A DNA stretch of 64,000 bases from Squalus acanthias (lineage: Eukaryota), in NCBI GenBank assembly GCA_030390025.1, contig CM059425.1:260958001-261022000 (forward strand), given 5' to 3'. The notes under the pieces are model-generated. The model was given only the letters and a program-made list of their open reading frames with translations. It was not told where the DNA came from and searched no databases. A program made the translations under genes and the position numbers. Below, in pieces: positions 1-38,881 of this stretch (the first letter of the stretch is position 1; each line of letters starts with the position of its first letter).

Positions 1-16
1 TCAGTCCTGCTCCTTT
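1..16 (-). CDS. Copy A exon 5, terminal coding part (R)KEQD*
   Basis: Acceptor cttgttttgtccacag at 17-32. The phase-2 junction gives AGA AAG GAG CAG GAC TGA. Confidence 0.65.
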
Positions 17-3000
17 CTGTGGACAAAACAAGACCAATTAAAATGAGCCGTGTGAACTATAAAATAAGAGCACTTTCAGCACCTCCATCCACAACCAGCG
101 GCTGTTTAAATAGCATTCCCTGCGCATTTCAAAATAGATTTGATAGCCGATCTTAATGAATACTTTGCATGTGTTTTCACAAAAGAGAGGGGCGATGCAG
201 AAATTGCAATCAGGGAGGAGGAGTGTGAAATATCGGATGAAATAAACATAGTGAAAGAGGAAGTATTAAGGGGTTTAGCATCTTTGAAGGTGGATAAATC
301 CCCCGGCCCGGATGAAATGTATCCCAGACTGTTAAGAGAAGTAAGAGAGGAAATAGCAGAGGCTCTGACAATCATTTTCCAATCCTCTCTGGCTACAGGT
401 GTGGTGCCGGAGGACTGCTAATGTGATACCGTTGTTTAAAAAGGGAGAAAGGGATAGACCGAGTAATTACAGGCCAGTCAGCCTAACCTCGGTGGTGGGA
501 AAATTATTGGAAAAAATTCTGAGGGACAGGATAAATCTTCATTTAGAAAGACACAGATTAATCAGGGACATGAGGGAGATCATGGATTTGTTAAGGGAAG
601 GTCGTGTCTGACTAACATGATTGAATTTTTTGAGGAGGTAACAAGGAGGGTAGATGAGGGTAGTGCATTTGTTGTAGTCTATATGGATTTTAGCAAGGCT
701 TTTGATAAGGTTCCACATGGCAGCCTGGTCACAAAAGTAAAAACCCATGGGATCCAGGGCAAAGTGGCAAGTTGGATCCAAAATTGGCTCAGAGGCAGGA
801 AACAGAGGGTAATGGTCGAAGGGTGTTTTTGTGACTGGAAGGCTGTTTCCAGTGGGGTTCCGCAGGGATCAGTACTGGGACCTTTGCTTTTTGTGGTATA
901 TATCAATGATTTGGACTTGAATGTAGGAAGTATGATTAAGAAGTTTGCAGATGATACAAAAATTGGCCGTGTGGTTGATAATGAAGAAGAAAGCTGTAGA
1001 CTGCAGGAAGATATCAATGGACTGGTCAGGTGGGCAGAACAGTAGCAAATGGAATTCAATCCGGAGAAGTATGAGGTAATGCATTTGGGGAGGGCTAACA
1101 AGGAAAGGGAATACACTGTAAATGGTAGGGCACTGAGTAGTGTAGAGGAACAAAGGGACCTTGGACTGCATGTCCACAGATCCCTGAAGGTAGCAGGCCA
1201 AGTAGATAAGGTGGTTAAGAAGGCATACGGAATGCTTGCCTTTATTAGCCGAGGCATAGAATATAAGAGCAGGGAGGTTGGGCTTGAACTGTATAAAATA
1301 CTAGTTAGGCCGCAGATAGAATACTGCGTGCAGTTCTGGTCACCACATTACAGGAAGGATGTAATTGCACGCGAGAGGTTGCAGAGGAGATTTATGAAGA
1401 TGTTGCCTGGGCTGGGGAATTTTAGCTATGAGAAAAGATTGGATAGGTTGGGGTTGTTTTATTTGGAACAGAGGAGGCTGAGGGGAGACTTAATTGAGGT
1501 GTATAAAATTATGAGGGCCTAGATAGAGTGGATAGGAAGGACCTATTTCCTTTAGCAGAGGGGTCGATAACCAGGGGGCACAGATTTAAAGTAATTGGTA
1601 GGAGGATTAGAGGGGATTTGAGGAGAATTTTTTTCACCCAGAGTGTAGTGGGGTTCTGGAACTCACTGCCTGAAAGGGTGGTAGAGGCAGAAACTCTCAT
1701 CACATTTAAAAAGTACTTGGATATGCACTTGAAGTGCCGTAACCAACAAGGCTACGCACCAAGAGCTGGAAAGTGGGATTAGGCTGGATAGCTCTTTGTC
1801 GGCAGGCATGGACATGATGGGCCGAATGGCCTCCTTCTGTGCTGTAAATTTCTATGATTCTATGATGATCCCAGCTGGGGCTGCAGTAGGGGCTCTCCAG
1901 TTGGTCTAAGTGAAACTGGGATAGGGAGAGGAAACATTGCCCAGGGATCCTGCTCCTGCTTGTATCCAGCAACCACTGCTGGACGTGTACTGTGTGGTCA
2001 TTGGCTCGACTTGGATGGCTCAGTGTTTGAATCACCTGCCAACACACACTGTCCAAGGCTCACCCATGAATCGGGCTTCAGGCATTTAAAGGCAAGAGTC
2101 TCCCAGCAATATTACATACCTGGTTTTCTCCCTGAATAAAATGATGCACATCACGAAAAGGGCAAGGAGTTTCACTCCAAGTGGAATGCACAATATCGCA
2201 ATGGGGAAAGCCTCTGCAACTGAACAGAAAGTGAGAGAGATCAAATCGGAGACAAATAAAGGTGAGACACCAACAATGCAGCGACAATTAATCAAAGCCT
2301 GTAGACAAGTGTGAATCTTGACTGCAAGGCAGAAATATTGTGGTGATGGAGATGAGCTAGGCAAAGAGTATGGACTGTCAATGAAGAACGACAAATGGAG
2401 AGTACAAATAATATAGTATCTCACAGTGACGGGTTAATACTGTAGTATTTACGGTGACTAGGGTTAATACTGTAGTATATCACAATCACAGGGCTAAATA
2501 TTGTAATGCTCATAGTGAAATAAATAATTTCTGTAGTATTTAGCAAAATGGTTAAATACTGTGATGGATGAATACTGTCGTACTCGGTGTTGGGGTGAAT
2601 ACAAGAGTACTCACAGTGACAGAGGCAAATACAAGAGTACTCACAGTGACAGAGGCAAATACAAGAGTACTCACAGTGACAGAGGCAAATACAAGAGTAC
2701 TCACAGTGACAGAGGCAAATACAAGAGTACTCACAGTGACAGAGGCAAATACAAGAGTACTCACAGTGACAGAGGCAAATACAAGAGTACTCACAGTGAC
2801 AGAGGCAAATACAAGAGTACTCACAGTGACAGAGGCAAATACAAGAGTACTCACAGTGACAGAGGCAAATACAAGAGTACTCACAGTGACAGAGGCAAAT
2901 ACAAGAGTACTCACAGTGACAGAGGCAAATACAAGAGTACTCACAGTGACAGAGGCAAATACAAGAGTACTCACAGTGACAGAGGCAAATACAAGAGTAC

Positions 3001-6000
3001 TCACAGTGACAGAGGCAAATACAAGAGTACTCACAGTGACAGAGGCAAATACAAGAGTACTCACAGTGACAGAGGCAAATACAAGAGTACTCACAGTGAC
3101 AGAGGCAAATACAAGAGTACTCACAGTGACAGAGGCAAATACAAGAGTACTCACAGTGACAGAGGCAAATACAAGAGTACTCACAGTGACAGAGGCAAAT
3201 ACAAGAGTACTCACAGTGACAGAGGCAAATACAAGAGTACTCACAGTGACAGAGGCAAATACAAGAGTACTCACAGTGACAGAGGCAAATACAAGAGTAC
3301 TCACAGTGACAGAGGCAAATACAAGAGTACTCACAGTGACAGAGGCAAATACAAGAGTACTCACAGTGACAGAGGCAAATACAAGAGTACTCACAGTGAC
3401 AGAGGCAAATACAAGAGTACTCACAGTGACAGAGGCAAATACAAGAGTACTCACAGTGACAGAGGCAAATACAAGAGTACTCACAGTGACAGAGGCAAAT
3501 ACAAGAGTACTCACAGTGACAGAGGCAAATACAAGAGTACTCACAGTGACAGAGGCAAATACAAGAGTACTCACAGTGACAGAGGCAAATACAAGAGTAC
3601 TCACAGTGACAGAGGCAAATACAAGAGTACTCACAGTGACAGAGGCAAATACAAGAGTACTCACAGTGACAGAGGCAAATACAAGAGTACTCACAGTGAC
3701 AGAGGCAAATACAAGAGTACTCACAGTGACAGAGGCAAATACAAGAGTACTCACAGTGACAGAGGCAAATACAAGAGTACTCACAGTGACAGAGGCAAAT
3801 ACAAGAGTACTCACAGTGACAGAGGCAAATACAAGAGTACTCACAGTGACAGAGGCAAATACAAGAGTACTCACAGTGACAGAGGCAAATACAAGAGTAC
3901 TCACAGTGACAGAGGCAAATACAAGAGTACTCACAGTGACAGAGGCAAATACAAGAGTACTCACAGTGACAGAGGCAAATACAAGAGTACTCACAGTGAC
4001 AGAGGCAAATACAAGAGTACTCACAGTGACAGAGGCAAATACAAGAGTACTCACAGTGACAGAGGCAAATACAAGAGTACTCACAGTGACAGAGGCAAAT
4101 ACAAGAGTACTCACAGTGACAGAGGCAAATACAAGAGTACTCACAGTGACAGAGGCAAATACAAGAGTACTCACAGTGACAGAGGCAAATACAAGAGTAC
4201 TCACAGTGACAGAGGCAAATACAAGAGTACTCACAGTGACAGAGGCAAATACAAGAGTACTCACAGTGACAGAGGCAAATACTATGTTGATACATCCCTG
4301 GCCTCTTATTTACTGGGCAGGTGGCTGGTGCGCTGGGTGAGACCACATGTACCGACCCTACGACCGGTGGAAGGGGGACCTCACCGGTTATACTGGCCCT
4401 TATAAAGGGGGCCAAGAGGGGGAATTGTTCATCGGGTGGGGTGGGGGTTAGCTCCGGCATCTCACCCAGAACCAGCGCATTGGTCCTCTACGCAGTCTCC
4501 TTCGGCTGGAGGGCGCCTATGGTTTTACCCCATCGTGTCGCGGGCACCCGCCTGTCATATTTAAATGGAGGACCACCCACCGACGCTGCGCATTTCAATA
4601 GAGCCCAGGGGGATTTTAGGCCCCAGTGTCCCCAAAATGGGAGCGTTTGGAAGGAACTGATGGAATCGGTCAGTTAGGAAAAAGAAGTGCTTGCATTTAT
4701 ATAGCGCCTTTCACAACCTCGGGACATCACAAAGCGCTTTACAGCCAATGAAGTATCTTTTGAAGTGTAGTCAGCTGTGGCTCAGTGGGTAGCACACTCG
4801 CCTCTGAGTCATGAAGGTTGTGGGTTCAAGTCCCACTCCAGGGACCTGAGCACATAAAGCTAGGCTGACGCTCCAGTGCGGTACTGAGAGAGTGCTGCAC
4901 TGTCGGAGGTGCCGTCTTTCAGATGAGACCTTAAACCGAGGCCCCGTCTGCTCTCTCAGGTGGATGTAAAAGATCCCATGGCACTATTTTGAAGAAGAGC
5001 AGGGGAGCTCTCCCCAGTGTCCTGGCCAACATAACAAAAACAGATTATCTGGTCATTATCACATTGCTGTTTGTGGGAGCTTGCTGTGTGCAAATTGGCT
5101 GCCGCGTTTCCCACATTACAACAGTGACTGTACTTCATTGGCTGTAAAGCGCTTTGGGACGTCTGGTGGTCATGAAAGGTGCTATAGAAATGCAAGTCTT
5201 TCTTTTAGTCACTGTTTTGATGTAGGGCACCAATATGCGCACAGCAAGCTCCCACAAACACTAATGTGATAAATGAGCAGATAATCTCTTTTTTACCTTT
5301 TTTGAGGGATAAATGCTGGCCAGGACACCGGGGAGCACTCACTGCTCTTCAGAATAGTGCAGTGGGATCTTTTACATCCACCTGAGGGGGCAGATGGGGC
5401 TCCGTTTTAACGTCTCATCTGAAAAACGTCAGTACTGCACCGGGAATGCCAGCCTAGATTATAGTCAAGTGTCTGGAGTGAGATGTGACAACTCGACCTT
5501 TTGACTCAGAGGCGAGAGTGCTACCCACTGAGCCAGGCTGATGAGTGTTTTCTGTTACACCGCCGGCTCCTCACTGTACAACCTCGATACACTGGAGAAT
5601 GTGGGAATGGCTTCTTACCATGTATCACCTCCAGCCGTGTCTCATTCTGGATCAGATGTTGATAATCGTCCCATTTCTTGTACTCCACCAGACACAGGTA
5701 AGTGTGGTTGTCCTTCACGCTCAGCTGGTTTATCCTGGTTGAGGCGTTTCCCTCCTCTGGTTTCCCGACTAGCTCGTACCGATTTCCACCGTTTACAGTT
5801 GTCCAAGATCCGTTTGATTGGGCTGTAAATGTGACTACGTGTTGGTAGGGCTCCTTCCTCATCCATGTAACAGTGCTCAGGGCGGTGCGGTCGCTGGGCC
5901 GTGTGAACATACAGGGCAGTGTAACCGAAGCTCCCTCGGTCCCACTCACCACTGAGACACTTCCACTAGCAGCTGAGGAAAGGACAAACATCAGAATGAG

Positions 6001-9000
6001 TCAGTGTCTTGATGAGAACGTTTAATTTATTTTAGTTCAGAGCTCTCCCTGTGGCCTTCCTCAGAGCACAAGGCTGGTCAATGAGTGGCAATGGACTATT
6101 TGACTGTGGAGAGCATCACAGGCAGGCCCAATGTCCAAGAACACAGCTTCCAGCAGGAGTCACTGGAGCGTGATCAGGAGCAGGAACCCCGGCCAATATC
6201 CCCCCCCCCCCCCCTTCATAGCCCGGGGCTGCTGAAAGTTTATTGATCCGTGTGGCTCAGGACCGGACCAGGTGGAGCCTTTACCCATTGAGCTATCGGA
6301 GCAGCTCCAGCCCCTGAACATTGTTCCTCACCTCTCACACTCAGACTCGGAATCGTTGTCCACGGTGTTTGAAAACCGCCAATATTGAGCAGCACTCGAC
6401 ACCGATAATCACCGCTGTCCGCCGGGCTCAGCCGCTCCATCATTATCGAGATATCCTTGTTGCTGAGGTTCCCCACGAATCTGAATCGATTCCCGCCGTC
6501 CTGCTGTCTCACACTCTCACACAGCCCGGCCCGTGAATGGCCCTGACCAGAATATGTACAGTTAAAAATAACCGGGTGAAACCCCGAGTCACCTTTGATC
6601 CACATCACAGTGCCGGTGAGCGTGCGATCAGGGTTTGGGTGGGTGAAACTGCACGGCAAGACAGCGGACCCCCCTTCCTCAGCAGTCACTGCATCCGCGC
6701 CGCTCATTGTCCAACCATTACGAGAAAACTCTGTGGGGCGAGAGAGACAACATTAGAACAGCACGGGGGCAGACATCAGTGTTTCAAGAACACACTGCCT
6801 GACAATATACTGAGTCTGTGATATAGTGACAACAGATATAAGAGGGGGGATTTTTCGGGGGTCAGCGGGCGCGTTCGGTGCCGGGTCGAGTGGGGAATTT
6901 TTTTTTCTGACAGCGGGTCGGGACCCTGCTGTCAACCCGCTGCCACCCGCCTTTCCCAGATTTCGGGTCTGTCAGGGCTGCGGGGGAGGCAATTCAGGTC
7001 ATTATGATCTTGTTAACAGCCCATTAAGAAGTATTTTGAGCTCGGCTTTACATTTTACGAAGTCGCCCAGGGAGTCCATGCTGCTCGGGGTTCACGCCAG
7101 GTAAGCAGGTAGGGAGTTGTGTTACCATGATATGATCGCTTTACTTAACAGCACCAACAACAACACTAACCTTCTCCGCAATTAACTGATGCTGCACAGG
7201 ACAGAGGACATCAGCACCCGACCACATTGCTGCCCGGGAGGCCAGGGATGGCCTCACTATGGCCAGATTTACTTCACTTGACTCTGAACACCCTGGCTGC
7301 CACATGATGTGCCAGGTTGGCACCATCCCACACCAACACCATAAAGCATCCCTACAATGTCCCAAGCCATTCCTTTCACACTTATTACCATTGCGGGGGG
7401 TACCGTTATGTCTCATCATTCACTGCAACTCACTAAGCCACTTCCAAAGGTGGACAGAAATCTGTCCAAGAATGCAAAGTGTTGAAAATAAAGATTTCAA
7501 TGTTTGACAGCACATTAACAGAAACTTCACATGAACTTCACATTGGCTAAAACACCCAAGTGCCTACCCTTGTGTGTTGTTAGTTGGTATGATTGCATTA
7601 GGATGAGGGTGAGCGTGAGGGGTGCCTAGTGAGATGGGGAAGTGATAATGTAGATAGAGAGGGATGGGTGGGGGTGCAAGGTAAGTTGGTGTGAGTAAGG
7701 ATGTGCAGGAGCAGGGTAAGGAAGGCAGAGTGATGGGGATGTGATGAGTGGCACAGCAGGATGAGGTTGAGTGTGGCTTGGCAGTAACATTTCGTGATCT
7801 ACTGAGATCATTGAAAGGTTTGCGCCACTGCAGCCTGGTCCTCCTGACAACATCCCTGCTTGTGTCCTCCTGTGCAATGTGCAACCAGGCTGCATTGGTC
7901 TCCTGGGGAGGTGTCTTCTGCCCATGGGAAGGGAAGTTGACTTCCCTGCATGCTGTAACTCCCTCCATAAGCATATGGAGGGAGTCACGGGAGAGCCATG
8001 CTGCGGCCTTGCACCTCTGTGCAGTGCTTGTCAGTGTTGGCAGCATCTCAATGCTGCAGAACACTGACAGCGCAAATGTCAAAAGCAATTTGCGCATGGT
8101 CCCTTTAAGGAAACTGCCTGATGATGTGTCATCAAATGACATCATCAGACCCGCTTCCTTCAATTGGCCAGGAAATGTGCTGGGCGGGCTTAACAAGCCC
8201 AATCAGGGGGAAGTCATTCTACAGAGCGGGCTGGAGCCAGCAGCGAGGTCGGGACCCACCAGCGACCCTGGCCGCATCGGATCCGCCGAGGTAGGGCAAA
8301 TCGCGGCCAACATCACATGGTCAGATTGGGATGGTTTATACATGGATATCGGACACTGTGTAGTGAGTTACAGTCTGGAATCTAATCGAGGGGTTCAGAT
8401 GGTTTATATATAGAATAATGGATACCTGGGAGTGAGTTACAGTCTGGAATCTAATCGAGGGGATTGGGTGGTTTACTTATAGAATAATGTCTACCTGGGA
8501 GTGAGTTACAGTCTGGAATCTAATCGAGGGGTTCAGATGGTTTATTTATAGAATAATGGATACCTGGGAGTGAGTTACAGTCTGGAATCTAATCGAGGGG
8601 TTTGGGTGGTTTATGTATAGAATAATGGATACCTGGGAGTGAGTTACAGTCTGGAATCTAATCGAGGGGTTCGGGTGGTTTATTTATAGAATAATAGATA
8701 CCTGGGAGTGAGTTACAGTCTGGAATCTAATCAAGGGGTTCAGATGGTTTATTTATAGAATAATGGATACCTGGGAGTGAGTTACTGTCTGGAATCTAAT
8801 CGAGAGGTTTGGGTGGTTTATGTATAGAATAATGGATACCTGGGAGTGAGTTACAGTCTGGAATCTAATCGAGGGGTTCGGGTGCTTTATACACAGAACA
8901 TTGGAACAGGAGGAGGCCATTGAGCCCCTCGAGCCTGTTCCTCCATTCAATGAGATCATGGCTGATCCGTGACCTAACTCCATATACCCACCTTTGGCCC

Positions 9001-12000
9001 ATATCCCTTAATACCTTTAGTTAACAAAAAGCTATCAATCATAAGAACATAAGAAATAGGAGCAGGAGTCGGCTATTTGGCCCCTCGAGCCTGCTCAGCC
9101 ATTCAATAAGATCATGGCTGATCTTCTACCTCATCTCCACTTTCTTGCACTATCCCCAAATTCCTTGATTCCCTTAATATCCAAAAATCTATCGATCTCT
9201 GTCTTGAATATACTCAATGCCAGGAGCAGAACCAGCGGACCTGAGCGGAACTGGAGTGGCAGTGGGAGCAGAATAAAGAGCACGGTGAAAGGAGGCTTGA
9301 GAGCAGAGCCAGCGGGGAGGAGCAGCGAGGCTCCGATTCAATAACAAAAAAATCAAAGTGTGAGTAACAGGTAAGCAGGTAGGTGATTGGTGGTGAGTAT
9401 TTCTTTTCTCTCAGGACTGAGGGCTAAGTTACAGTAAAGACCTATAGCATATAACTACATTTATAACTAACTCAACTTATTTTAATAAATTTAATAAATT
9501 AAACAAGGTTATTACCTGGTTTACCTAGATTAAAAACTATAAATACACAATTCATTGATATTGACGTAATTAATTAAATAAAATACAATAGAGATGGCAG
9601 GGCAGGCGATGTGTTGCAGCTGTAACATGTGGGAGCTGGTGGACACCAGTGTGATCCAGGGCGACCACATCTGCAGTAAGTGTCTGCAGCTCGAGGAACT
9701 TCGGCTCAGAGTTGATGGGCTGGAGTCTGAGCTGCAGACATTGCGATACATCAGGGAGGGAGAAAGTTACCTGGACACTTTGTTCCAGGAGGCAGTCACA
9801 CCCCTTAGGTTAAATACTTCAGATTTGGTCCGTGGTCAGAGACAGGAGGGTGTGACTGCAAGTGAGGCAGGTATGGGAATCCAGAAGGTAGCATTGGAGG
9901 AGCCTCAGCCCTTGCACTTGTCCAACAGGTACGAGGTACTTCCTCCCTGTGTGGACGAGAGCAGGGACTGCAGGGAGGATGAGAAAACTGACCACAGCAC
10001 CGTGGTACAGGGGGCCATTCAAGTTGGGGGAGTAAAAAGTAATGTAGTCTTGATAGGGGACAGTATAGTTAGGGGGATAGATACTGTTCTCTGCAGCCGA
10101 GAGTGTGAGTCCCGAAGGCTGTGTTGCCTGCCCGGTGCCAGGGTTAAGGATATATCCTCTGTGCTGGAGAGGAATTTGGAGTGGGAGGGGAAAGATCCAG
10201 TTGTCGTGGTCCACTTAGGTAACAAATACATAGGTAGGACTAAGAAAGAGGTTCTGCTGAGGGAGTATGAGCAGCTGGGGACTAAATTTAAAAAGTAGAA
10301 CCACAAAAGGTAATAATCTCTGGATTACTACCTGAGCCACGAGCAAATTTGAATAGGGTAAATAAGATCTGAGAGATGAATGCGTGGCTCAAAGATTGGT
10401 GTGGGAGAAATGGGTTTCGATTCATGGGGCACAGTACTGGGGAAAGAGAGAGCTGTTCCGTTGGGACGGCCTTCACTTGAACCGTGCTGGGACCAGTTTC
10501 CTGGCGAATCGAATAACTAGGGCTGTAGATAGTGCTTTAAACTAAATAGTGGGGGAGAGGGTTCAGGTGAGGGGAAACTTAAAAAGTCAAAGAGGAAGGA
10601 GAAGGCAATAGTGCAGGGTAGCGATAGGGATAATGATAACCAGAGTGTGACAGGAAGGGACAGAGCGTAAAAACATAAGAGTGCAGCAGAAAGTAGAGTC
10701 AGAGTAGGTAAAAATGGTAAAAAGACAAAATTAAAAGTGCTTTATCTGAATGCACACAGCATTCGTAACAAGATAAATGAATTGACGGCACTAATAGAAA
10801 TAAATGGGTATGATCTGACAGCCATTATAGAGATGTGGTTGCAAGGTGACCAAGGCTGGGAACTGAACATTCAGGGGTATTTGACATTTTGAAAGGATAG
10901 GCAGAAAGGAAAAGGAGGTGGAATAGCTCTGTTAATAAAGATTGAGATCAGTGCAGTAGTGAGAAATGATATTGGCTCAGAAGATCAAGATGTAGAATCA
11001 GTTTGGGTGGAGATAAGAAATAATAAGGGAAAGAAGTCACTGGTGGGAGTAGTCTATAGGCCCCCTAACAGTAGCTACGCTGTAGCACATAATCATGGGA
11101 GATTTAAATCTTCATATAGATTGGACAAATCAAATTGGCAAAGGTAGCTTTGAGGAAGAGTTCATAGAGTGTATTCGGGATGGTTTCTTAGAACAAAACG
11201 TTGTGGAACCAACCAGGAAGCAGGCTATTTTAGATCTGGTAATGTGTAATGAGATAGGATTAATTAATGATCTCATAGTAAAGGATCCTCTAGGGAAGAG
11301 TGATCATAGCATGATAGAATTTCACATTCAGTTTGAGGGTGAGAAACTTGCGTCTCAAACTAGCCTCCTGAACTTAAATAAAGGCAATTACAAAGGTATG
11401 AAGACAGAGTTGGCTAAAGTGGACTGGGAAAATAGATTAAAGGGTAAAACGGTAGATAAACAGTGGCAGACATTTAAGGAGATATTTCATAACTCTCAGC
11501 AAAGATATATTCCAGTGAGAAAGAAAGACTCTAAGAGAAGAATGAACCATCCATGGCTAACTAAGGAAGCTAAGGATGGTATCAAATTGAAAACAAAGGC
11601 TTACAATGATGCGAAGATTAGTGGTAGGCCAGAGGATTGCGAAATTTTTAGAAACCAGCAAAGGACGACTAAAAAGTAAAAGAGAGAGAAGATAGATTAT
11701 GAGAGTAAACTTGTAATGGGATAAGCCATATTCCAAGAAATACATCATCCTATGAACAGATTTTGATGACATTAATACATGACATACTGGGTTTAAAAGT
11801 CTGGAAAGCCTTGGCAACACAGGCTGCAAACACAAAACAAGCTTTGAAATAGGAATTGGTTTGTAAATACAGAGACAAAGCCCCTATTGAAGCAAACCAT
11901 TGGTGCTTCCAGAATGTCTAGAGTTTGGAACAAAACAATAGCAATGTCCAAGTAAAGTGTCAAATCCTAACACGTCGAACAAGTGCACAGAACATTAAAA

Positions 12001-15000
12001 AAACAACAGCCTTTGAAAAAATGACATCAAGTAAAAGAAATACCTGCCGTAAAATAGTTATATGTTAAACTTAGAAACAGGAAACAGGAAACACGATTAA
12101 ATATGCAGCCAATTGAAATAGCTAAGAAATGCAAAAAACACCCTGGTTGAAGCATTTTTGATTTACAAGTTGTAAAAGTTACAAATAGGAAGGCTTTGAA
12201 AATATAATATCAATAGATGACACCAAGCAATTACATTGTGTTTGTATTGAACATGGAACACCACGGAGTCACGACGTCTGGCTTACAAGCAGTTAAGTGA
12301 TTTTAAGAATTCAATAGAAAGACTTCCTAAGAATAGCATCAAATAGATAAATCGACAATAACCATAAAAATGATAAGTTTTTGAAACACCTAAAGGTAGA
12401 GACAGAATTCTAAAAGTTGGCAGCTGAAATGACAGTAAGAATAGAAAAAAATTCAATTAAGAATCACTAGAGATAATTAGCTTACATCAGCAGGAAACTT
12501 CAAAGAAAATACCACTAAAAAAAGGTATAAAAATAGAGCTTTTCAGATAGAGAGTCAGAAGTCGCTGGAAGGGCAAACGTTTCTCAACTTCACAGGCATG
12601 CTCTGTAAGTTTTCAACTCTGAGTCTCGGGTAATCAAGGTATTTGATTTTGGTAGATATTCTGGATTAAGAAATAAGTAGAAGTGTGGAAATGTAACGAA
12701 GTTAAGATTTGAGAATAAGGATCTCTGATAAGAAATGTAAGCTATTTGTATTTTGAATGGTTAAAGTCGTGATTGACTTATCAGCTGTTAACTGAATGAC
12801 AGCTCTTAAATAAATCTATATATTTTTAGAATTGTCTCAAGTAGTATTTCTGTATCAACCTCGCAAACTCAATTTCAGTACACTCTTCAGAGAGGAGTTG
12901 CAGAATTCTGGGGGGTTTCCGGACCCTCATAATATCCAGAAGGTTACACTCTAGTTAAACTTATTAAAAGTGCTATCCGGAGGACGGTAACATCTTCAGG
13001 CCATTTCTTTCCTTTAGGGAGAGGTAGTCTGACCTTTAGACCCAATTAAGCATCTCTAGGATTCAGCTACCGCTAACTTTAGTTGAAGGTGAACGTCTGG
13101 GGAATACGCCTGATCTGGGGTAGTCTGAAAGGGCTAGGACTTGTAATTATCCCTTCAAACTAGCAAGAAATATAAAAACAGACAATAAGAGCTTCTACAG
13201 GTATATAAAAAGGAAGAGAATAACTAAAGTAAACATTAGTCCCTTAGAAGATGAGACTGGGGAATTAATAATGGGAAACAGGGAAATGGCAGAGACTTTG
13301 AACAAACCCCTTCATCTCCGCAATCAACCTCGTGAACCGCCTCCAATGCAAGTATATCCTTTGTTAAATGAGGAGACCAAAACTGTACGCAGTACTCCAG
13401 GTGTGGACTCACCAACGCCCTGTACAGATGTAACAAGGCTTCCCTACTTTTATACTCCACTCCCTTTGCAATAAAGTCCAACATTCCATTTGCCTTCCTA
13501 ATTACTTGCTGTACCTGCATGCTGGGGAAGCTGGTTACAGAGAACGTCAGCGTATGACGTTTCATCTGTCAAAAATTTTTGACAGTTGAATTGTCATCGT
13601 TTGCTGGAAATAGTCATTGCTTGGCACTTGTGTGGCGCGAATGTTACTTGCCACTTATCAGCCCAAGCCTGAATGTCATCCAGGTCTTGTTGCATGCGGG
13701 CATAGACTGCTTCATTATCTGAGGAGTTGTGAATGGCACTGACCACTGTGCAGTCATCAGCGAACATCCCCATTTCTGATCTTATGTTGGAGGGAAGGTC
13801 ATTGATGAAGCAGCTGAAGATGGTTGGGCCTAGGACACTGCGCTGAGGAACTCCTGCAGCGATGTTCTAGGGCTGTGATGATTGACCTCCAATCACCACA
13901 ACCATCTTCCTTTGTGCTAGGTATGACTCCAGCCAGTGGAGAGTTTTCCCCCCGATTCCCATTGACTTTAGTTTTACTAGGGCTCCTTCATGCCACACTC
14001 TGTCAAATGCTGCCTTGATGTCAAGGGCAGTCACCCTCACCTCGCCTCTGGAATTCAGCTGCTTTGTTCATGTTTGGACCAAGGCTGTAATGACATCAGG
14101 AGCCGAGTGGTCTTGGCGGAATCCAAACTGGGCTTCATGTGAGCAGGTTATTGGTGAGTAAGTGCCGCTTCATAGCACTGTTGATGACACCTTCGATGAT
14201 TGAGAGTAAACTGATGGGGCGGTAATTGGCCGGATTGGAACTGTCCTGCTTTTTGTGGACAGGACATAGCTGGGCAGCTTTCCACATTGTCGGATAGATG
14301 CAAGTGTTGTAGCTGTACTGGAACAGCTTGGCTAGAGGCGCGGCTATTTCTGGAGCACAAGTCTTCAGCACGATAGCCGGGATGTTGTCGGGGCCCATAG
14401 CCTTTGCTGTATGCAGTGCGCTCAGCCGTTTCTTGATATCACATGGAGTGAATCGAATTGGCTGAAGACTGGCTTCTGTGATGGTGGGGACCTCAGGAGG
14501 AGGCCGATATGGATCATCCACTCGGCACTTCTGGCTGAAGATAGTTTCAAATGCTTCAGCCTTGTCTTTTGCACTCATGTGCTGGGCTCCACCATAATTG
14601 AGGATGGGGATATTCATGGAGGCTCCTCCTCCCGTTAGTTGTTTAATTCACGACTGGATGTGGCAGGACTGCAAAGCTTTGATCAGATCTGTTGATTGTG
14701 GGAGCGCACTTTCCGCTGTTTGCACTTGGCTTCCGTTTGCTCCCGGCGAAGAGACTCAAGGTGTTCGGCGCCTTCCCGGATGCTTCTCCTCCACTTTGTG
14801 CGGTCTTGGGCCAGGGATTCCCAGGTGTCGGTGGGGATGTTTCATTTTTTCAAGGAGGCTTTGAGGGTGTCATGGTAGCGTTTCCTCCGCCTACCTGGGG
14901 CTCTCTTGCCATGTCGGAGCTCCGAGTAGAGCGCTTGTTTTGGGAGTCTCGTATCGGGCATGCGGATGATGTGGCCCGTCCATCGGAGCTGATCGAGCAT

Positions 15001-18000
15001 CATCAGAGCTTCGACGCTGGGGATGTTGGCCTGAGTGAGAACACTGACATTGGTGCGCCTATCCTGCCAATGGATTTGCAGGATCTTGCGGAGGCAGCGT
15101 TGATGGTTCCTCTCCAGTGCTTTAAGGTGCCTGCTGTACATGGTCCATGTCTCTGAAGCATACAGGAGGGCGGGTATCACTACTGCTCTGTAGACCATGA
15201 GCTTAGTGCCGGGTTTGAGATCATCGTCTTCAAACACTCACTTCATCAGGTGACCGATGGCTGCACTGGCACACTGAAGGCGATGTTGGACTTCGTCATC
15301 GACGTCTGCCCTTGTTGACAGTAGGCTCCTGTGGTATGGAAAGTGGTCCACGTTGTCCAAGGCCTCGTCGTGGATTTTGATAATCGGGGAGCAGTACTGT
15401 GTGGCGGGGGCAGGTTGGTTGAGGACCTTTGTCTTACGGATGTTTAGTGTAAGGCCCATGCTCTCCTACGCTTTGGTGAAAGTGTTGACGATGGTTTGGA
15501 GTTCGACCTCAGTGTGTGCGCAGACGCAAGCGTCGTCTGCATACTGTAATTTGATGACAGATGATGGGACAACTTTGGATCTGGACTGGAGGCGATGGAG
15601 GTTGAACAGTTTCCTGTTTGTTCTGTAGATTAGCTCCACTCCAGCGGGGAGCTTACTGACGGTGAGATGGAGCATTGCAGCCAGGAAGATCGAGAAGTGT
15701 GTTGGTGCGATGACACAGCCTTGCTTGACCCCGGTCCGTATGTGAATTGGGTCCGTGGTGGATCCATTGGTCAGGATCACAGCTTGCATGTTGTCGTGAA
15801 GCAGGCGGAGGATGTTGCCAAACTTTTGAGGGCAGCCGAATTTGAGGAGGACACTCCATAATCCCTCACGGTTGACAGTGTCGAAGGCGTTTGTGAGATC
15901 AAAGAAGGCCATGTACAGCGGTTGGTGCTGTTCCCTGCATTTCTCTTGTATTTGACACGCAGTGAAGATCATGTCCATTGTGCCCCTTAGTGGGCGGAAT
16001 CCGCATTGTGACTCTGGGAGGAGCTCTTCAGCCACTGGGAGAAGGCGATTGAGGAGGATTCTTGCGATGGCTTTCCTTGTGGCAGACAGCATGGAAACTC
16101 CTCTGTAATTACTGCAATCGGACGTGTCACCTTTCTTGAAGATGGTCACGATTACGACGTCTCTGAAATCTCCTGGCATGCTCTCCTCCTTTCAAATAAG
16201 AGAAATGAGTTCATGTATTCATGCCAATAGTGCTTCTCCGCCATGCTTTAGTGCCTCGGCAGGGATTCCATCTGCTCCTGAGGCCTTGTTGTTCTTCAGT
16301 TGTCGGATGGCCTTTTCAACCTCATGCCGGGCTGTGGTTGTGCTGAGATGGTGGCGGGTAGCATGCTGCGGGATGGAGTTGAGGACACTCGCGTCAAAGA
16401 CAGAGTCTCGGTTAAGGAGATCTTCGAAGTGCTCCTTCCAGCGGGCACTGACAGCGTCTCTTTCCTTGATGAGTACCTCTCCGTTCTTGGCCCGCAGTGG
16501 GGTAGGACCTTGGGTGATTGGGCCATAGGCGGTCTTGACTGCGCTAAAGAATCCACGCACGTTGTGGTTGTCGGCTAGCTGCTGGATCTCCTGCGCTTTC
16601 TCCGCCCACCACCTGTTCTTTAGGTCGCAAATTTTTTGTTGGACCTCGGCCTTCCGGCATCTGTAGAACTGCTTTCTTGCTCTCGAGTTGTGTTGCTGTT
16701 TCCAGATCAGGAATGCCTTGCGCTTGCGGTTTATTAGCTCCTGGCTCTCCTGGTCGTTCTCATTGAACCAGTCTTGGTGTTTCCTGGTCAAGTGACCGAG
16801 CGTCTCTTCACAGGTGCTGATTATGGAGGTCTTGAGTGCAGACCAGGCGCTGTGGACACTCTGGGCTGGATTTTGAAACTGGAGTTGGGTTGGGGTCGGG
16901 AATCACACATTCTGGCTTGTAAACCCGCCTCCATCGAGATGTGGCCAACCCACTGTATTTTCCCTTGATTGACCTTGTTGAGCCCGCCCAGTGGGCTCAG
17001 CAGGCCAATTAAGGGCCACCCGGCAACAGGTGACGTCACAGACTGATATTTCATCTGTCAAGAGCTTTTGACAGATGAAATATCAGCGTTTGACAGCTCT
17101 GTGAAGCTGTCAAACACTCACAATATGATTTCTAACTTCAGTCCTTCCTTTCAGGCTGACGTAGAAATCATTCCAGCACAGAAAACAGAAGGCTGCCGTT
17201 TCTGACAGAACCACGGCTTTCCTGCTTTCTGTGCCGGTGAGATTTCTAACTCCCGAGAACAGAAGGGCTGACACCTGCAGGAGAAAGTTAAGGTAAGTAA
17301 AACTTTTTCCAACACTTAGCACTTACCTTACACACTTACCTCTGCACACATGCACCCATCACTCACCTGCCCACCAGACATATCGACCCCTCCAACCCCT
17401 GCAGACACACGGCCCGCCCCGATAACTTGGCGTGGTTGCCACCTGTCAGGAAGCCCACACTTTTCTTTTTAAAATAGGGATTATGCAAAAAACTGCCTGT
17501 TAACTACCTGTTAACAGGCAGTTAATTATCACTAATCCCTTCCCGCCTTGGGGAGTCGGGTCTCAGCACAGGTTGGGTACCCGCCGCCAGAGAAACTGGC
17601 ATGGAGGCGGGATGGGGTCGGGACCCCCGAATCTGCAACTTTAACCCCCCCCCCCCCCCCGCCGCCTCCAAACCCGACTCCACGGGTCATTGAAAATCCA
17701 ACCCTCTGTGTCTCTGAATCACTGGGAGTCGTCAGGCTGGTTGTGAGGCGCAGGCTGAATAGGGCTTTCTTAGCAGGGTCTTTGAGTTCTCCAGCGTTGA
17801 TTTTCCTGCGGCGTTGTTTCTGTTGCTGCCGCTGTTTTGGGGCTACGTTGATGGAGGTGACTGAGTGAATCAGGCAGTGATCTGTCCAGCAGTCGTTAGC
17901 TCCTGTCATGGCGCGGGTGATGCGGACGTCCTTGCGGTCCCTCGCTCGGACGATGACGTAATCCAGCAGATGCCAGGGCTTGGAGCGAGGGTTTAGCACG

Positions 18001-21000
18001 GTGGTAGTGCCACACAGCACAATGGAGGGTGTCCTCAGTGTGAAGAAGGGACTTTATCTCCACAATGACTGTGCAGTGGTCACTTCTACCAATACTGTCA
18101 TGGACAGATGCATCTGCGACAGGTAGATTGGTGAGGACGAGGTAAAATAGGTTTTTCCCTTCTGTTGGTTCTCTCACCACCTGTCGCAGGCCCAGACTGG
18201 CAACTATGTCCATCAGGACTCGGCCAGCTCGGTCAGTAGTGGTGCTACTGAGCCACTCTTGGTGATGGATATTGAAGTCCCCCACCCAGAGTGCATTCTG
18301 TGCCCTTGCTACTCTCAATGCTTCTTCCAAGTGGTTTTCCAAGCTGATGCATCAGCTGAGGAAGGGCAGCAGGTGGTAATCAGCAGGAGGTTTCCTTGCC
18401 CATGCTTGACCTGAAGCCATGAGACTTCATGGGGTCCGGAGTCAATGTTAAGAACTCCCAGGGCCATTCCTTCCCGACTGTATACCACTGTGCCACCACC
18501 CCTGGTGGGTCTGTCCTGCCGGTGGGACAGGACATACCCAGGGATGGTGATGGAGGAGTTTGGGACATTGGCTGAAAGGTATGATTCTGTGAGTATGGGC
18601 TGGATTTTGCCAGCCCTGGGGAGGCAGGTTTTGAGGCGGGACTGCCGGGAAAATGGCAGAATCTGGGGGCGGGTACCCATCCCGCCCCCAACCCGCCGAC
18701 ATACCACATTCCCAGGAGGCCGGTAGCCAACCCGGGCAGTTAAGAGGATTATTCCCATTTTTCCAACAGAGGCACGAGCTTCCCGACATCGGAATTCCCC
18801 GCCAGGGTCAGCGAGACGAGCAGTGGGTCTGCGGGGGTCGGAGGGGTGCAAAAGTGCACTGTGGAGGTAAATGATGGGTGCAAGTGTGGAGAGGTAAGTA
18901 TGTGAGGTGAGTGAAAAGTGATAGAAAATGTTTACTTACCTTTGTTTCTTCCTGCAGGCTTTAACAGTTGAGGATGCGGAGACACTCGCATCTCTCCGGC
19001 AGAGATGACAGATGTCTGCTGCATTCTCCGATGCAACAGCCATCTGATTTCTGCTCACAAAAGAGGTTTGATGAGTCTTGAATACAAGGACTCGTCAAAC
19101 AACACAGTGTTTGACAGCTTCACAGAGTTGTCAAATGATGACAATTCAACTGTCAAAAATTTTTGACAGATGAAACGTCATACGCTGACATTCTCTGTAA
19201 CTGGCTTCCCCATAATTGGCCTGCTAAGCCCGCTGGGTGGACTTAACAAGGTCAATCAAGGAAAAATAGCGTGGGTTGGCCACAAGTCGATGGAGGCGGG
19301 ACTAAAACCCGACAAGCAGCAGTCCCGCCTCCAACACACCCCCATTGGCAAAATCACCCCCTATGACTATGTCAGGCTGTTGCTTGACTAGTCTGTGGGA
19401 CAGCTCTCCTAATTTTGGCACAAGTCCCCAGATGTTGGTGAGGAGGACTTTACAGGGTCGACTGGGCTGGGTATGCCATTGTCCTTTCTGTAGCCGGTGC
19501 CGGCTTGGTCCTCCTTTGCTGAATTCTAAAATCCTCAGGCTCACTACTCTTTTTGGCAACATTATAAGCCTCTTCCTTTGATCTAATACAATCTTTAACT
19601 TCTCTTGTTAGCCACGGTTGGACCACTTTTCCTGTGGGGTTTTTGTGCCTTAAAGGAATGTATATTTGTTGTAAATTATGTATTAATTCTTTAAATGCTG
19701 GCCATTCCTTGTCTACCGTCATACCTTTTAATGTAATTTCCCAATCTACCTTAGCCAACTCGCCCCTCATACCTACATACTTTGCTTTATTTAGATTTAA
19801 GACCCTAGATTCGGATTTAACTAAATTACTTTCAAGCTCAATATAACATTTTATTATATTATGGACACTCTTCCCTAAAGGCCCCTTTACTGCAAGGTTA
19901 TTAATTAACCCTTTCTCATTGCACAATACTAGATCTAAAATAGCCTGTTCCCTAGTTGGTTCCTCAACATACTGATCTAGAAAACTATCTTGCATACACT
20001 CCATGAATTCATCCTTCACACTATTACTGCAAATTTGGTTTGCCCAGTCTATATGTAGATTAAAGTCCCCCATGATTACTGTATTACCCTTGTTACATGC
20101 ACCTCTAATTTCCTGATTTATAATCTGCCCTACATTATAACTACTGTTTGGGGGCCTATAAATAACTCCCACCAATGTTTTCTGCCCCTTGCTGTTTCTT
20201 AGCTCCACCCAAACTGATTCTACTTCTTCATTTTCGGAGTTAAGATCCTTTTGCTCTACTGTCTTTATCCCATCCTTTATTATCAGGGCTACCCCCTCCT
20301 CCTTTTCCATCTTGACTATCTCTTCTAAAAGTTAAGTATCCTTGAATATTTAATTCCTAACCTTGGCCACATTGCAACCACGTGTAAGGTTTCCAAAATT
20401 TGCAGATCCCCAAAACCTAAGGAAAAAGGACTTTGGAACTACCTCAGAGTGATAAAATGCATTTGGGCCTAACATAAGGAATTTAAGACCAAAAACCAAG
20501 TTTTGGCATTTTAAAAGACATGTCTGGACCTGTGAGGGAGAAAAGGCTGCACAGGAGGTGGGTTCGACCTCTGTAAAAGCAGTTTTGGGTATTGCAGTTA
20601 AATTGCATTGTCTGGGGAATCGGGATGACCTCACTCAAGCCCCAGCAAGCATTAACATTTGGACAATAGACCCTGGGAGAAGGCAGCCCCACCCAAAACA
20701 GAGGCCCCATTAAAACCTATCACAGACCCATCAAAACCATGCATAATTCAAATCGCTCAGGACCATTCTATAGAAAAACCCGAGTCCAGCCTAGAAACCC
20801 AAAACACAAAACTAATCACCTGTAATCAACCGAAGAGATCGACAGGACGCAAGCCATTTGACACTTAGTAAAGTTGTTACTGTTAACGAGGTCTTACAAT
20901 GACCGGGATTTGATTTGGTTTTGATAAGGCCACTTCAATTTAGTATAATTGAAGGCCCATCAAGCAGTTACAACAGTTCAAGTTCTCCAGTAAAACAGTT

Positions 21001-23042: not shown

Positions 23043-23125
23043 CGCCAGATCTTCGGTGTTCCGTCCTTCTCCCTCGCTGCTTTTTGTCTCCTGACACCGA
23101 AATACAGAAGTTGCTCGAAGTATTT

Positions 23126-23289
23126 TTTCACTTCCTGTGGAACCTGCAAAAACTGTTGATCAATCTCACTGAATGCAAGAGGCTAAGAGGAAGTCTCTTT
23201 ATGTTGAGCACAAACCGAGAGTGAAGTGTTGCTGACTAACAGACCAGGGATATTTATATAACTGCTGGCAAAAAGAGGCAGAAACCACA
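23126..23289 (-). promoter_or_regulatory. Putative myeloid/lymphoid promoter of copy A: EICE, PU.1 site, TATA-like element, RUNX site
   Basis: GGAAGTGAAA (minus, 23126-23135, Ets-IRF composite consensus GGAAnnGAAA), AAGAGGAAGT (23185-23194), TATATAAATA (minus, 23251-23260), AACCACA (23283-23289), all within 250 bp upstream of the ATG. Confidence 0.55.
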
Positions 23290-23358
23290 GCATCAAGTGA
23301 GAATGAGAGATGCTGCATTAGCTTCCAATATTGTTGGCAGAATGTCCATCGAGCTCCA

Positions 23359-24069
23359 GGGGGGTTAAATTGATTAGCGGGGAGAACGGGCGTGGGGATG
23401 GCGGTACGCGATGAACCCATGTCCCAGATTGTGCTGCACGCAACAGGTAAAATCCGTGCTACCTGCTGATTTCCATGATTGCTGCATGCAGCCAGCGCTA
23501 CCCGCGCTGTTGATTGGTTGCACGCATCAGGAGGAGGACCGAAATCGGGAATGCACAATGCCATTTAAAGGCAGCAAGCACCTCTTAAAGGGGAGGTGGA
23601 TTGGAGTTTCTAGAAGTGGTCTGAGAAACTGACCTGAGAGACCTATCACACAAATGACTGACCCTGGGAGACAGCGGGCACCAAGGTTCTCTGACACTGC
23701 ACTGGAGGCCTTGGCGCAGGAGATGGAGAGGAGGAGGGACATTCTCCCAGGGGGGAAGAGAGCCCTGATAGCATATGCTGAGGAAGCAGTGGGAGGAGAT
23801 CGCAGAGGAGGTGAATGCGAAGAATCTGGACCCACATACCTGGATGCAGTGGGAAGAAGTTCAATTATCTGACAAGAGTTGTCAAGGTCAATCTTCAAAT
23901 GGCTTCTCATAACAGCTGCACCACTATCCTCATCACTGCTGAATTGACACCACCCACATCCCCCACCACCTACAATTTCTTCAACATTTCTGAACACTTC
24001 AATCAACATGCTTGACGTCACCCTCTCGCATGCAGTAATGTAGAAAACTTCACACCAACAACTTGCATC
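23359..24069 (+). mobile_element. Harbinger-derived fragment with a Myb/SANT-like ORF remnant (copy at ~61069..61779)
   Basis: RAPRFSDTALEAL...RRRDIL, followed in other frames by TYLDA/KKFNYLTRVVK; boundaries approximate. Confidence 0.6.
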
Positions 24070-26017
24070 TGTAGGTGGTTTGCTCTGGTGGTTTGAATCA
24101 CCCCTCCTACTTGGTTCTATACGACAGGAATTACAGTGAACAGGATTGGGACACAGACAAGCTTTTCAGACACAACCGTACGGTGTTTAATAAGGTTAAC
24201 ACACACACCCGCCTCCAGTACGTAAAATGCCTGGTGGCGTAAAACAAACAGTCCAACAATACAACTTGGCCCGTCGAACAGGCCCCTGTCTCGTATTAAG
24301 ACGCCTAAAATCACACTGTGTTGCAATACAGAGTATAAAATATACACAGAACCTCCCCACTAAACCCCTCTGGATTGGTTGGGACACACAACACCCCCTC
24401 ACACAGTACCGGTGGTCTTAAGAATGCGTGGGCTTGGACAATGCTCACCCTGATTGTCCGTTTTCTTGCTCGCTGCTCCCCTGTGTAGAACGTGTCTCCT
24501 GGTTCCGTATCGCCGATACAGTATCCAAGTCCCAGTTTCGAGGTTCGTTCCTACAGTAGAAGAGCAAGACGTGAGGCTCTTGTCGCTCGTGGTGGTTTCG
24601 AGCAAGCGAGAGAGAGATAGAGAAATGGCAAAAGCTGCTTTCTTTATATACCCTAAAAGTTCACTCTGCCCTGTGTAGTTGCAGTAATGTCTTTTTAATC
24701 ACCCTTCTTTGTCTGGTTTCCCGACTTTCGGGGCTATCCCATCTAGGTGCTGGTGATAATGGCAGATAATGGGCCGCACTTCTCACCTGATCCTGGGTTA
24801 AGTGGCTTCCCATTAATTTACAATGGCCCTCTTTTGTCCGGTTACCGCCTTTCGGGGCTATCCCATCTAGGTGCTCGTCACCGTATGAGTCACCTCCCCG
24901 GACCCATTTGGGGAGAAATTCAGTATCGCCCCATTTGGGGCGCAATTATCGGCCGGGCGCAAAGATTAGCACCTGGTGCTAATTATCCCCTCCGACTGCA
25001 AACTTTTCTTTTGTCGCCCCTGGAGGTGATTGGAGCGCTAAATCAGGCGCTACACATCTGTCTTAAGGCGCAAAGGCCGAGGAGCCAGGCGCTAACTGAG
25101 AGCGCTGGCGAGGCGCTAACTCAGAGCGCTGGCGAAGCTCATGTGATGTCAGTCAGCAATGGAACACAGACACAATGGCGCCGGCCAGTTCTTAAAGGGG
25201 AGGGTTGATCTTGTTTTCCATCCACATCCTGCTCATTGCAGCCTTGAATCTCGGCCTGGAGAGACCTGTACATCAAATCTGCTGGAAAGAACACTGCAGA
25301 GTACCAGGGAAAGAGCTCAGAGTGCAGCCCCCACAGTCTCTTCTAAATCGATACAAGGAAGGGCAAATAAAAATGAACCTGCAAAGTGCTGCTCAGTACC
25401 CAAAACTCCTTCACACAGCGTTGAATCTGTCCAGAAGTCTCTCTCTCTCTCTCTCTATCTCAGAATGCGTGGTTAAAAAATATCACCAACAAAAAAAGGC
25501 AGGAAGCGGTCGCCTTTAAATAGCGCTCCCCCAGTCCCTTCCTGATTGCAAAACGCTCCCCTCAAACTGTCGTTGCCAGCGGCAGGCGGTAAGGCAGGGG
25601 GCACCACTCAATCTCCGCTCCGGGGCACTGCGCACTCGACTGATGTCACGATCTGCCGGCGCAGGAGGTCGTGGTGGTAGTGTTTAGCGCCACCACAAAA
25701 TGTCTAGTTAATTTCGCGAGCGGCGCAAACATCGTCGCGCCTGGGCACTAGTTGCTTTGCGCCCCATTAGCGCACTCTTAAGGTGCTAACGGGAGGCGCA
25801 ACCAACTGAATTTTTCCCCCATTATCTTCCCAGAGAATTCTGTCTGCCCAGACATTCCCCCATAATTAGTTAGTAGGCCTGGCTGGAATCTCCTGTCCAC
25901 GAACACCTGGGTCCCTCCCATCTTCTCCAAACAGGTTGCTGGTCAAATCAGCAGTAACAGTCATTCAAAATGTCCGATACAAAAAAAAAATCCTTGGGGC
26001 CTGCGTTGATGTTTACA
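24070..26017 (-). mobile_element. Solo LTR in minus orientation containing a MITE (copy at 61780..63723)
   Basis: TGTA...TACA ends, 4-bp TSD CATC. The left end resembles the reverse complement of the 3' end of the 20383 LTR. TATATAAAG on the minus strand at ~24642-24650. Confidence 0.75.
24909..25820. mobile_element. Harbinger-type MITE (copy at ~62618..63526)
   Basis: TIRs GGGGAGAAATTCAGT / ACTGAATTTTTCCCC, flanking ATT duplication. Confidence 0.75.
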
Positions 26018-31947: not shown

Positions 31948-31950
31948 TAA

Positions 31951-38865: not shown

Positions 38866-38881
38866 TCAGTCCTGCTCCTTT
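38866..38881 (-). CDS. Copy B exon 5, terminal coding part, followed by a probable 3' UTR toward ~38520
   Basis: Identical to 1..16, with non-repetitive sequence downstream on the minus strand. Confidence 0.65.

Follow-up and report, generated by a model that had tools for sequence, protein, structure and literature searches.

Why do two tandem receptor genes that are nearly alike over the duplication they share differ so much more in a single exon, and there mostly by amino acid replacements? The question is raised by 64,000 nucleotides of Squalus acanthias (NCBI GenBank assembly GCA_030390025.1, contig CM059425.1, positions 260,958,001 to 261,022,000 of the forward strand), the whole stretch of DNA analysed here and called the window, which holds two genes, A and B, each predicted to encode two V-set domains, V1 and V2. 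The answer that we favour, with reasonable though far from full confidence, places A and B, as predicted activating members, in a Siglec-15-derived family of paired receptors in sharks. Their V1 domains would differ, in all likelihood, through gene conversion among the activating copies and with a predicted inhibitory partner, E, together with likely diversifying selection on the front face of the domain.

The V1 exons of copies A and B

Both V1 exons are 399 bp long, lie on the minus strand and are bounded by an AG acceptor and a GT donor.

6332..6730, minus strand: copy A V1 exon, Siglec-15-type V-set with W6, C26-C110, C57-C70 and Arg111; V1-V2 splice joint seen in run X7
43736..44134, minus strand: copy B V1 exon
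1..26295, no strand: portion of tandem unit A alignable to unit B (38866-64000), at 1.18% mismatch

The Siglec-type domain recognized in the first-pass annotation is confirmed as a Siglec-15-type V-set by PDB sequence match, fold match and reciprocal genome search. Human Siglec-15 is the best PDB sequence match of V1 (E 9.5e-15; next 6.4e-5) and the top fold match of its AlphaFold model (predicted local distance difference test score, pLDDT, 76; template-modelling score, TM, 0.79), and a bird Siglec-15 query returns this cluster as the top 15 of its 77 matches in the genome. CD33 matches at E 8.9e-4 against 9.5e-15 for Siglec-15, and V1 is not placed among the CD33-related Siglecs. With the Siglec-15 residue numbering found in the accessible part of PMC10264397 (C64-C142, C95-C104, R143), residues W6, C26, C57, C70, C110 and R111 align with W44, C64, C95, C104, C142 and R143, so that both cysteine pairs are matched, by C26-C110 and C57-C70, the exception being a further copy, D, with Trp at position 57. 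The essential Arg is present in 5/5 of the genome's own copies and in 47 of 55 related V1 domains. All 48 homologues returned by the first search are from sharks or rays, and their database names are scattered (Siglec-10, -12, -15, pIgR-like, JAM-like); eight of ten mid-ranking profile matches that were checked are named Siglec-15 or siglec15-like.

How different are the two exons? Recounting reproduces the figures given at first pass: 18 nucleotide differences in 399 bp, 15 differing codons of which 14 are nonsynonymous, and codon 111, the Arg codon (CGA/CGG), as the sole purely silent one. The identity of the leader (61 of 61 bases) and the near-identity of the V1-V2 intron (no mismatch over 361 aligned bases, the poly-C tract differing in length by 6 bases) likewise hold, and the quoted motif changes (FSR/VYH, FHP/LHR, QG/LD, G/E, SVR/NVI, RVLLNIGG/RVELNIGS) are all present, to which T40N and I93A, omitted there, are to be added. 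The "strong excess" of nonsynonymous change read from these counts is too heavy a claim for the pair alone: Nei-Gojobori counting gives Sd 2.0 and Nd 16.0 (pN/pS 2.4, Fisher p=0.17), and the local mutation spectrum, taken from 260 non-coding differences within the A/B duplication (expected synonymous share 0.31), gives p=0.05. We therefore do not use the pairwise ratio of nonsynonymous to synonymous rates (dN/dS) as proof of selection; none of the ten V1 pairs is convincing, with one at p=0.04.

V1 stands out against its surroundings, with a divergence of 4.5% compared with 1.18% (293/24,772 mismatches) across the whole duplication. Eighteen or more mismatches occur in 2.1% of 399-bp duplication windows, and two of the stretches that reach this level, near 17.8 kb and near 24.3-24.6 kb, are non-coding. 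Non-coding divergence peaks of 14-22 differences per 400 bp lie at 4801-5200, 17601-18400 and 24401-24800 of the window, and possibly reflect conversion from other repeat copies.

A predicted inhibitory partner and probable exon-limited exchange

Where might the V1 differences have come from? The genome contains five intact close V1 copies (A-E) and one broken one (P), in a cluster spanning C1:260.2-261.8 Mb. C, A and B stand in tandem on the minus strand, with the third unit, C, ~39 kb before unit A; D and the pseudogene P are on the plus strand, as is E, 800 kb away and inverted relative to A/B/C. C, A, B, D and P all carry a transmembrane exon with a lysine. A, B, C and D are predicted to encode a leader, two V domains, this lysine-bearing transmembrane segment and a short tail, the activating type, whereas E is predicted to combine a leader and two V domains with an uncharged transmembrane segment, tail exons with SCTYADI and SCTYASI, and a last exon with DVIYAAVV, an immunoreceptor tyrosine-based inhibitory motif (ITIM), the inhibitory type. 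The tail exons of E were located by local search only; a genome-wide search with the inhibitory tail matched nothing real because the exons are too short. Judged from sequence, E and A-D thus appear to join near-identical ectodomains to opposite signalling modules within one cluster, the arrangement of paired receptors.

The homology of E to A/B/C is restricted to two exon-centred islands, of 580 bp around V1 and 436 bp around V2, beyond which the introns are unrelated.

6262..6841, no strand: V1 island shared by A and E, V1 exon plus short flanks, 96.9% identity; E side at G000:C1:261800676-261801255
43666..44247, no strand: V1 island shared by B and E, 98.45%
5569..6004, no strand: V2 island shared by A and E, 98.4%; E side at C1:261805379-261805814
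42967..43402, no strand: V2 island shared by B and E, 98.6%

Copy C resembles E at 97.4% in the V1 island and 97.5% in the V2 island, and the remaining matches between E and A/B/C, among those listed, are dispersed or tandem repeats. D and E agree at 92.5% over 1164 bp that includes a 69-bp satellite.

Within V1, copy B carries the letter of E at 13 of the 18 A/B sites, and it differs from E at 7 bases compared with 16 and 18 for its own tandem neighbours. The five copies form a patchwork: their 14 informative sites support 7 distinct splits, incompatibility affects 45 of the 91 pairs of sites, and the minimum number of recombination events (Rm=5) implies at least five exchanges in 396 bp. These observations indicate that the A/B differences in V1 were mostly imported by gene conversion, and did not mostly accumulate by divergence after duplication. 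GC-biased conversion leaves no signal, with 13 changes from weak to strong bases (W>S) and 15 from strong to weak (S>W).

Both tail types are also present in other sharks and in rays. ITIM forms and lysine forms occur together in Heterodontus and in Scyliorhinus torazame; in rays, a lysine form comes from Amblyraja and an ITIM form from Narcine. When 55 V1 domains are placed in one tree, the copies of this genome, of Heterodontus and of S. torazame cluster by species, activating together with inhibitory, and the approximately unbiased (AU) test rejects a single clade of activating copies (p-AU 3e-50, 11 against 11 rows). The test used 22 of the 55 rows, with three carpet-shark proteins with a transmembrane lysine added by hand as activating; automatic tail typing of the 55-domain set had wrongly called P0048 activating and missed five such carpet-shark proteins. 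Islands, incompatible sites, species-wise clustering and AU test together point to homogenization of the ligand-domain exon by conversion. Variable positions are shared with Heterodontus paralogues at 12 of 24 (p=5e-5), and with p<0.05 in 5 of 8 species.

Probable selection on the front face and competing explanations

Conversion moves differences between copies; does selection also act on them? Across the five V1 copies there are 40 changes, counted once per column and as synonymous if silent in any background, of which 35 are nonsynonymous and 5 synonymous (p=0.006 when local non-coding changes set the expected synonymous share, 0.31). With more copies than the pair, dN/dS stands above 1, as the first-pass annotation had anticipated: a codon model gives omega 2.92 for V1 (twice the log-likelihood difference, 2dlnL, 5.9) and 2.67 for V1+V2 (2dlnL 7.9). 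The comparison of site models M1a and M2a on V1 yields 24.4-24.5; its nominal p of 5e-6 was rejected on calibration, and the flagged sites are mostly homoplastic and double-change codons. In that calibration, 87 neutral simulations preserving the observed splits and simulating no multi-base mutations, none reached omega 2.9 (maximum 2.24) or 24.4 in the site test. Non-coding flanks inside the islands have 3 changes in 261 columns compared with 40 in 399 in V1. No stop or frameshift interrupts the five V1 exons, and W6, C26, C110 and R111 are unchanged.

The variable residues lie mostly on one side of the domain, in agreement with the binding-face location proposed at first pass: 13 of the 14 A/B changes fall on the front face (p=0.0014), as do 27 of 29 variable residues across the five copies. 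The front face, taken as the N-terminus, the stretch from the BC loop to the C'' region, and the F-G end, was drawn from Siglec-15 topology after the data were seen, and residues were assigned to it from alignment and secondary structure. A clustering in the C-C' region, also proposed, is partly misplaced, in that QG/LD, G/E and SVR/NVI actually sit within the span of the two extra cysteines or immediately beyond it, which is C'-C'' by the Siglec-15 alignment. Codon 111, the essential Arg codon of the first-pass annotation, is indeed the R143 position; V2, which lacks this Arg, is equally skewed, with 8 nonsynonymous and 0 synonymous A/B differences in 351 bases, in the BC and FG loops, and the skew is therefore not specific to the sialic-acid site.

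What might be recognized by this face? By analogy, V1 may bind sialic acid through its Arg; for zebrafish Siglec-15, the accessible part of PMC7226832 reports poor binding of the glycans tested. The positions matching the Siglec-15 side-chain contacts W44, R143 and, putatively, Y154 are invariant, so protein ligands on the front face are no less plausible as the driver than glycan specificity is. Since the contacts are fixed while their neighbours (50, 52, 113, 118, 120), the C'-C'' region and the loops of V2 vary, either fine specificity for glycans or a protein adhesin may be driving the change.

The strongest competitor, which we regard as unlikely yet worth serious weight, holds that V1 is a conversion mosaic under relaxed constraint with no positive selection: redundant activating copies would drift near omega 1, changes would gather in exposed loops, and the skew would be high by chance, singled out when the sequence was first read. 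A number of observations weigh on its side and against selection. The A/B pair taken alone is not significant, the 35:5 count falls to p=0.074 under the plain Nei-Gojobori share, p is 0.056 or 0.22 for the 22 changes that do not belong to the A/B pair, and the V1 exon was chosen for its skewed look. Of the neutral simulations, 23/87 exceed the nominal cut-off of 5.99, so that mosaicism inflates the site test, and two neighbouring bases differ in at least six codons, double-base changes lying outside both models and simulations. The sister groups V1b (37:14), V1c (16:3) and V2b (22:5), tested without L014, which is divergent, and without the V1 of L017, which appears to be frameshifted, are none of them significant and do not serve as replicates of the signal; the family's own V2 across copies gives 13:2 (p=0.13). 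Cys57Trp in D and the broken P are as expected under relaxed constraint, which is also how the Siglec-11/16 case is interpreted in the accessible part of PMC5701461. Purifying selection on the core would likewise produce front-face clustering, and the island flanks include splice signals and so are not fully neutral. Furthermore, the activating V1 domains of bamboo sharks (P0029, P0038, P0039, P0045) form their own cross-species clade without the Arg, so the tracking of inhibitory by activating copies is not universal, and in these sharks the two seem to be uncoupled. Relaxed constraint has nonetheless to accommodate the failure of every neutral-mosaic simulation to reach the observed omega or site-test value, a V1 whose variability greatly exceeds that of the flanks within its island, the same variable positions in other species, and five V1 exons kept open with their key residues intact. 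On balance positive selection on V1 is likely, not proven. The first-pass proposal of diversifying selection on the ligand face with the Arg preserved is accordingly moderately supported, by omega ~2.9, the front-face sites and the Arg in 5/5 copies; it missed the paired-receptor conversion and tied the signal too closely to the sialic-acid site.

A less probable alternative places selection on the activating copies themselves, widening their repertoire against microbes or self glycans, with E as an occasional conversion partner and the driver maybe a protein ligand of the front face. The equal skew of the Arg-less V2 in its BC and FG loops would fit, as would the many private nonsynonymous changes in D, the loss of Arg from bamboo-shark activating V1, and the fact that most changes encircle the pocket or sit in C'-C''. 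It is at odds with a copy B that is nearer to E than to its tandem neighbours, with E homology that ends just beyond the exons, and with V1 domains of both types clustering by species in three lineages.

That A and B are haplotypes of one locus set in tandem, or consensus errors, is very improbable: the units are 98.8% alike and no junction-spanning read was seen, but there are three tandem units with different insertions and two further copies, both letters recur in other assembly copies at 14 of the 18 sites, which excludes consensus errors as a general cause, contigs from four independent public runs carry B-type letters, errors would ignore codon position and exon edges, and were A and B alleles the selection signal would remain as allelic diversity. 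Three of the 18 sites have a letter private to A and one a letter private to B; the B-private letter at 6451 and the A-private one at 6508 are found in independent runs, the A-private one at 6574 probably so, and the A letter at 6526 is in 0/4 runs and in no other copy. At least nine further V1 letters are among those listed in the public runs, all of them nonsynonymous and four of pseudogene type.

Siglec-15 relatives, known paired systems and the wider cluster

How might a conversion-coupled pair of A-D and E operate? As in known families, the transmembrane lysine of A-D would recruit DAP12 and the ITIM of E would recruit SHP-1/2. A pathogen engaging inhibitory E, and thereby dampening immune cells, may be the driver; E would alter its front face to escape, conversion, in a putative direction, would equip the activating copies with this face in its present and earlier forms, and A-D could then act as counter-traps. 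At its broadest, sharks and rays would have built a CD33-like paired Siglec system from Siglec-15, with E in a pathogen arms race and the activating array as a library of present and past faces refreshed exon by exon. This wider history is offered tentatively, as a conjecture that may well prove mistaken. If true, pathogen exploitation of inhibitory Siglecs reaches back to cartilaginous fishes and was independently invented there.

Similar systems have been described, in the accessible parts of the sources, elsewhere. The primate pairs Siglec-5/14 and Siglec-11/16 (PMC6288428, PMC5701461) share the combination of ITIM and charged-transmembrane receptors, near-identical ligand domains through repeated conversion, and broken activating copies; they are CD33-related, in contrast to the Siglec-15-type shark family with its four intact activating members per inhibitory one and two separate converted exon islands. 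The closest pattern is that of Xenopus CEACAMs (PMC5112662), with conversion limited to the ligand-domain exon, opposite orientation and nonsynonymous changes on the CC'C''FG face, although these belong to another family and their activating members carry motifs of their own resembling an ITAM (immunoreceptor tyrosine-based activation motif) and no transmembrane lysine. Skate MDIRs (PMC3031540) are likewise a multigene family of activating and inhibitory Ig receptors in a cartilaginous fish; from their description they are CD300/TREM/pIgR-like, which would set them apart from a domain whose best matches are Siglec-15. The accessible passages of PMC7226832 treat fish Siglec-15 as activating, say that fish genomes lack inhibitory CD33-related Siglecs, and are silent on 'shark' and 'cartilaginous'; nothing on the shark cluster stands in the accessible parts of PMC13358205, PMC8455134 and PMC3031540. 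In a literature search mostly of titles and abstracts, no account of paired Siglec-15-type receptors clustered in a shark genome came up, though subscription papers on Siglec evolution and supplements lay outside it and could hold one. The mechanism is already known, which makes the finding less surprising; as far as that search reaches, the lineage appears new for it. Siglec-15 is regarded as conserved and activating; the ITIM/lysine pairs, exon-limited conversion and omega near 3 seen here suggest that the same solution arose independently on another Siglec branch, and the five V1 domains with their 29 variable residues are natural variants for testing sialic-acid mimicry as a driver of paired receptors outside mammals.

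How close is the family to Siglec-15 proper? With the human protein (PDB 7ZOZ; accessible part of PMC10264397) it shares a Trp on strand A, a disulfide between strands B and F, a further pair of cysteines in C'-C'', an Arg that directly follows the Cys of strand F, and a Lys in the transmembrane segment. It departs from Siglec-15 in its second domain, which is encoded by a V-set exon followed by the transmembrane exon, where Siglecs have a V-set followed by a C2 domain, and in forming a ~1.6 Mb multi-gene cluster that includes inhibitory members; its FG loop is three residues shorter than that of bird Siglec-15, and a sister subfamily in other sharks has an extra Ig domain after the two V domains. 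The two also differ in gene order, which for SIGLEC15 we take to be a single gene between SLC14A and EPG5/PSTPIP2/ATP5F1A. In this genome both SLC14A (C2:54.4-54.6 Mb) and ATP5F1A (C2:5.5 Mb) are on C2, EPG5 was not located, and the cluster lies on C1. We therefore describe the cluster as a Siglec-15-type family and not as a one-to-one orthologue of SIGLEC15. A search of 340 kb adjoining SLC14A and ATP5F1A gave no V1-like match, which does not by itself show the absence of a separate canonical SIGLEC15. A wider tree with bony-vertebrate Siglec-15 had no proper outgroup and weak deep support, and for these reasons was not used for orthology.

Inhibitory relatives of Siglec-15 are not confined to sharks, as bony-fish siglec15-like proteins (Conger P0151, Polyodon P0160) and turtle P0154 share the Siglec-15-type V domain and have an uncharged transmembrane segment with ITIM-like tyrosine motifs in the tail; they differ in their V-C2 architecture. 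The lungfish protein P0063 has seven tandem Siglec-15-type V domains, with the Arg motif in each.

Genes A and B themselves consist of a leader, V1, V2, a lysine transmembrane exon and a short tail, their exons of 61+399+354+100+16 adding up to 930 nt in frame.

22982..23042, minus strand: copy A leader exon
5619..5972, minus strand: copy A V2 exon, second V-set domain, without Arg (YLCLVE)
2120..2219, minus strand: copy A exon for the transmembrane segment, containing Lys (PLGVKLLALFVMC) and of activating type, 82% identity to a segment of Heterodontus P0009
1..16, minus strand: copy A last exon, coding part, short tail ending RKEQD-stop, the same tail as P0010
60692..60752, minus strand: copy B leader exon, identical to A
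43017..43370, minus strand: copy B V2 exon
40985..41084, minus strand: copy B transmembrane exon with Lys
38866..38881, minus strand: copy B last exon, coding part

V1 is joined to V2 at the predicted sites in one probable RNA run of a related organism, and in two probable RNA runs, whose RNA status is a guess and not on record, the exons are covered and the introns uncovered. The intron between V2 and the transmembrane exon holds a perfect 30-bp tandem array, at 2598-4282 in A (~56 units) and ~41463-41677 in B (~7 units), which is open in several frames yet intronic; a reading of the array at 2598-4282 as a mucin stalk is ruled out, as the flanking exons join in frame without it. The 69-bp satellite varies in copy number (8326-8905 and 45699-46554 of the window) and also occurs directly upstream of V1 in D and E.

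Outside the window, copy D (L005, G000:C1:261100950-261101345) has lost its C'-C'' disulfide through Cys57Trp and has many private changes near the G strand. In the broken activating copy P (L006/L008, G000:C1:261055128-261058887) V1 and V2 are interrupted and the Arg is replaced; a leader exon lies at C1:261046558, 8.5 kb upstream of P in opposite orientation. An orphan V2-exon fragment (G000:C1:261791607-261791744) sits within the first intron of E. Two further Siglec-15-type subfamilies occupy G000:C1:260.23-260.76 Mb (L007-L021, L023, L026, L027). V1c (L007, L009-L011) is nearest to bony-vertebrate Siglec-15, at 40-41%, and homologues of V1b occur both with a transmembrane lysine and with tyrosine motifs, which makes a second receptor pair in the cluster likely. 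On its flanks, where 120 of the 420 candidate frames were scanned, the cluster has a GNAT gene and an EGF/laminin-G gene, the flanking frames including a retrotransposon pol (L140:6577-9999), the GNAT acetyltransferase (L130:7937-8488) and EGF/laminin-G exons (L109-L110). Further clusters of V-set exons with weak bird Siglec-15 matches (E 1.6e-9 to 1e-3) are found on contigs C3, C17, C30, C1353, C3542 and C3835 of G000. Finally, between units A and B, an element on the minus strand at 28960-32916 contains an endonuclease/reverse-transcriptase-like frame that stays open for 996 aa, with another of 321 aa upstream; the element resembles a long interspersed element (LINE), the family to which we presume it belongs.

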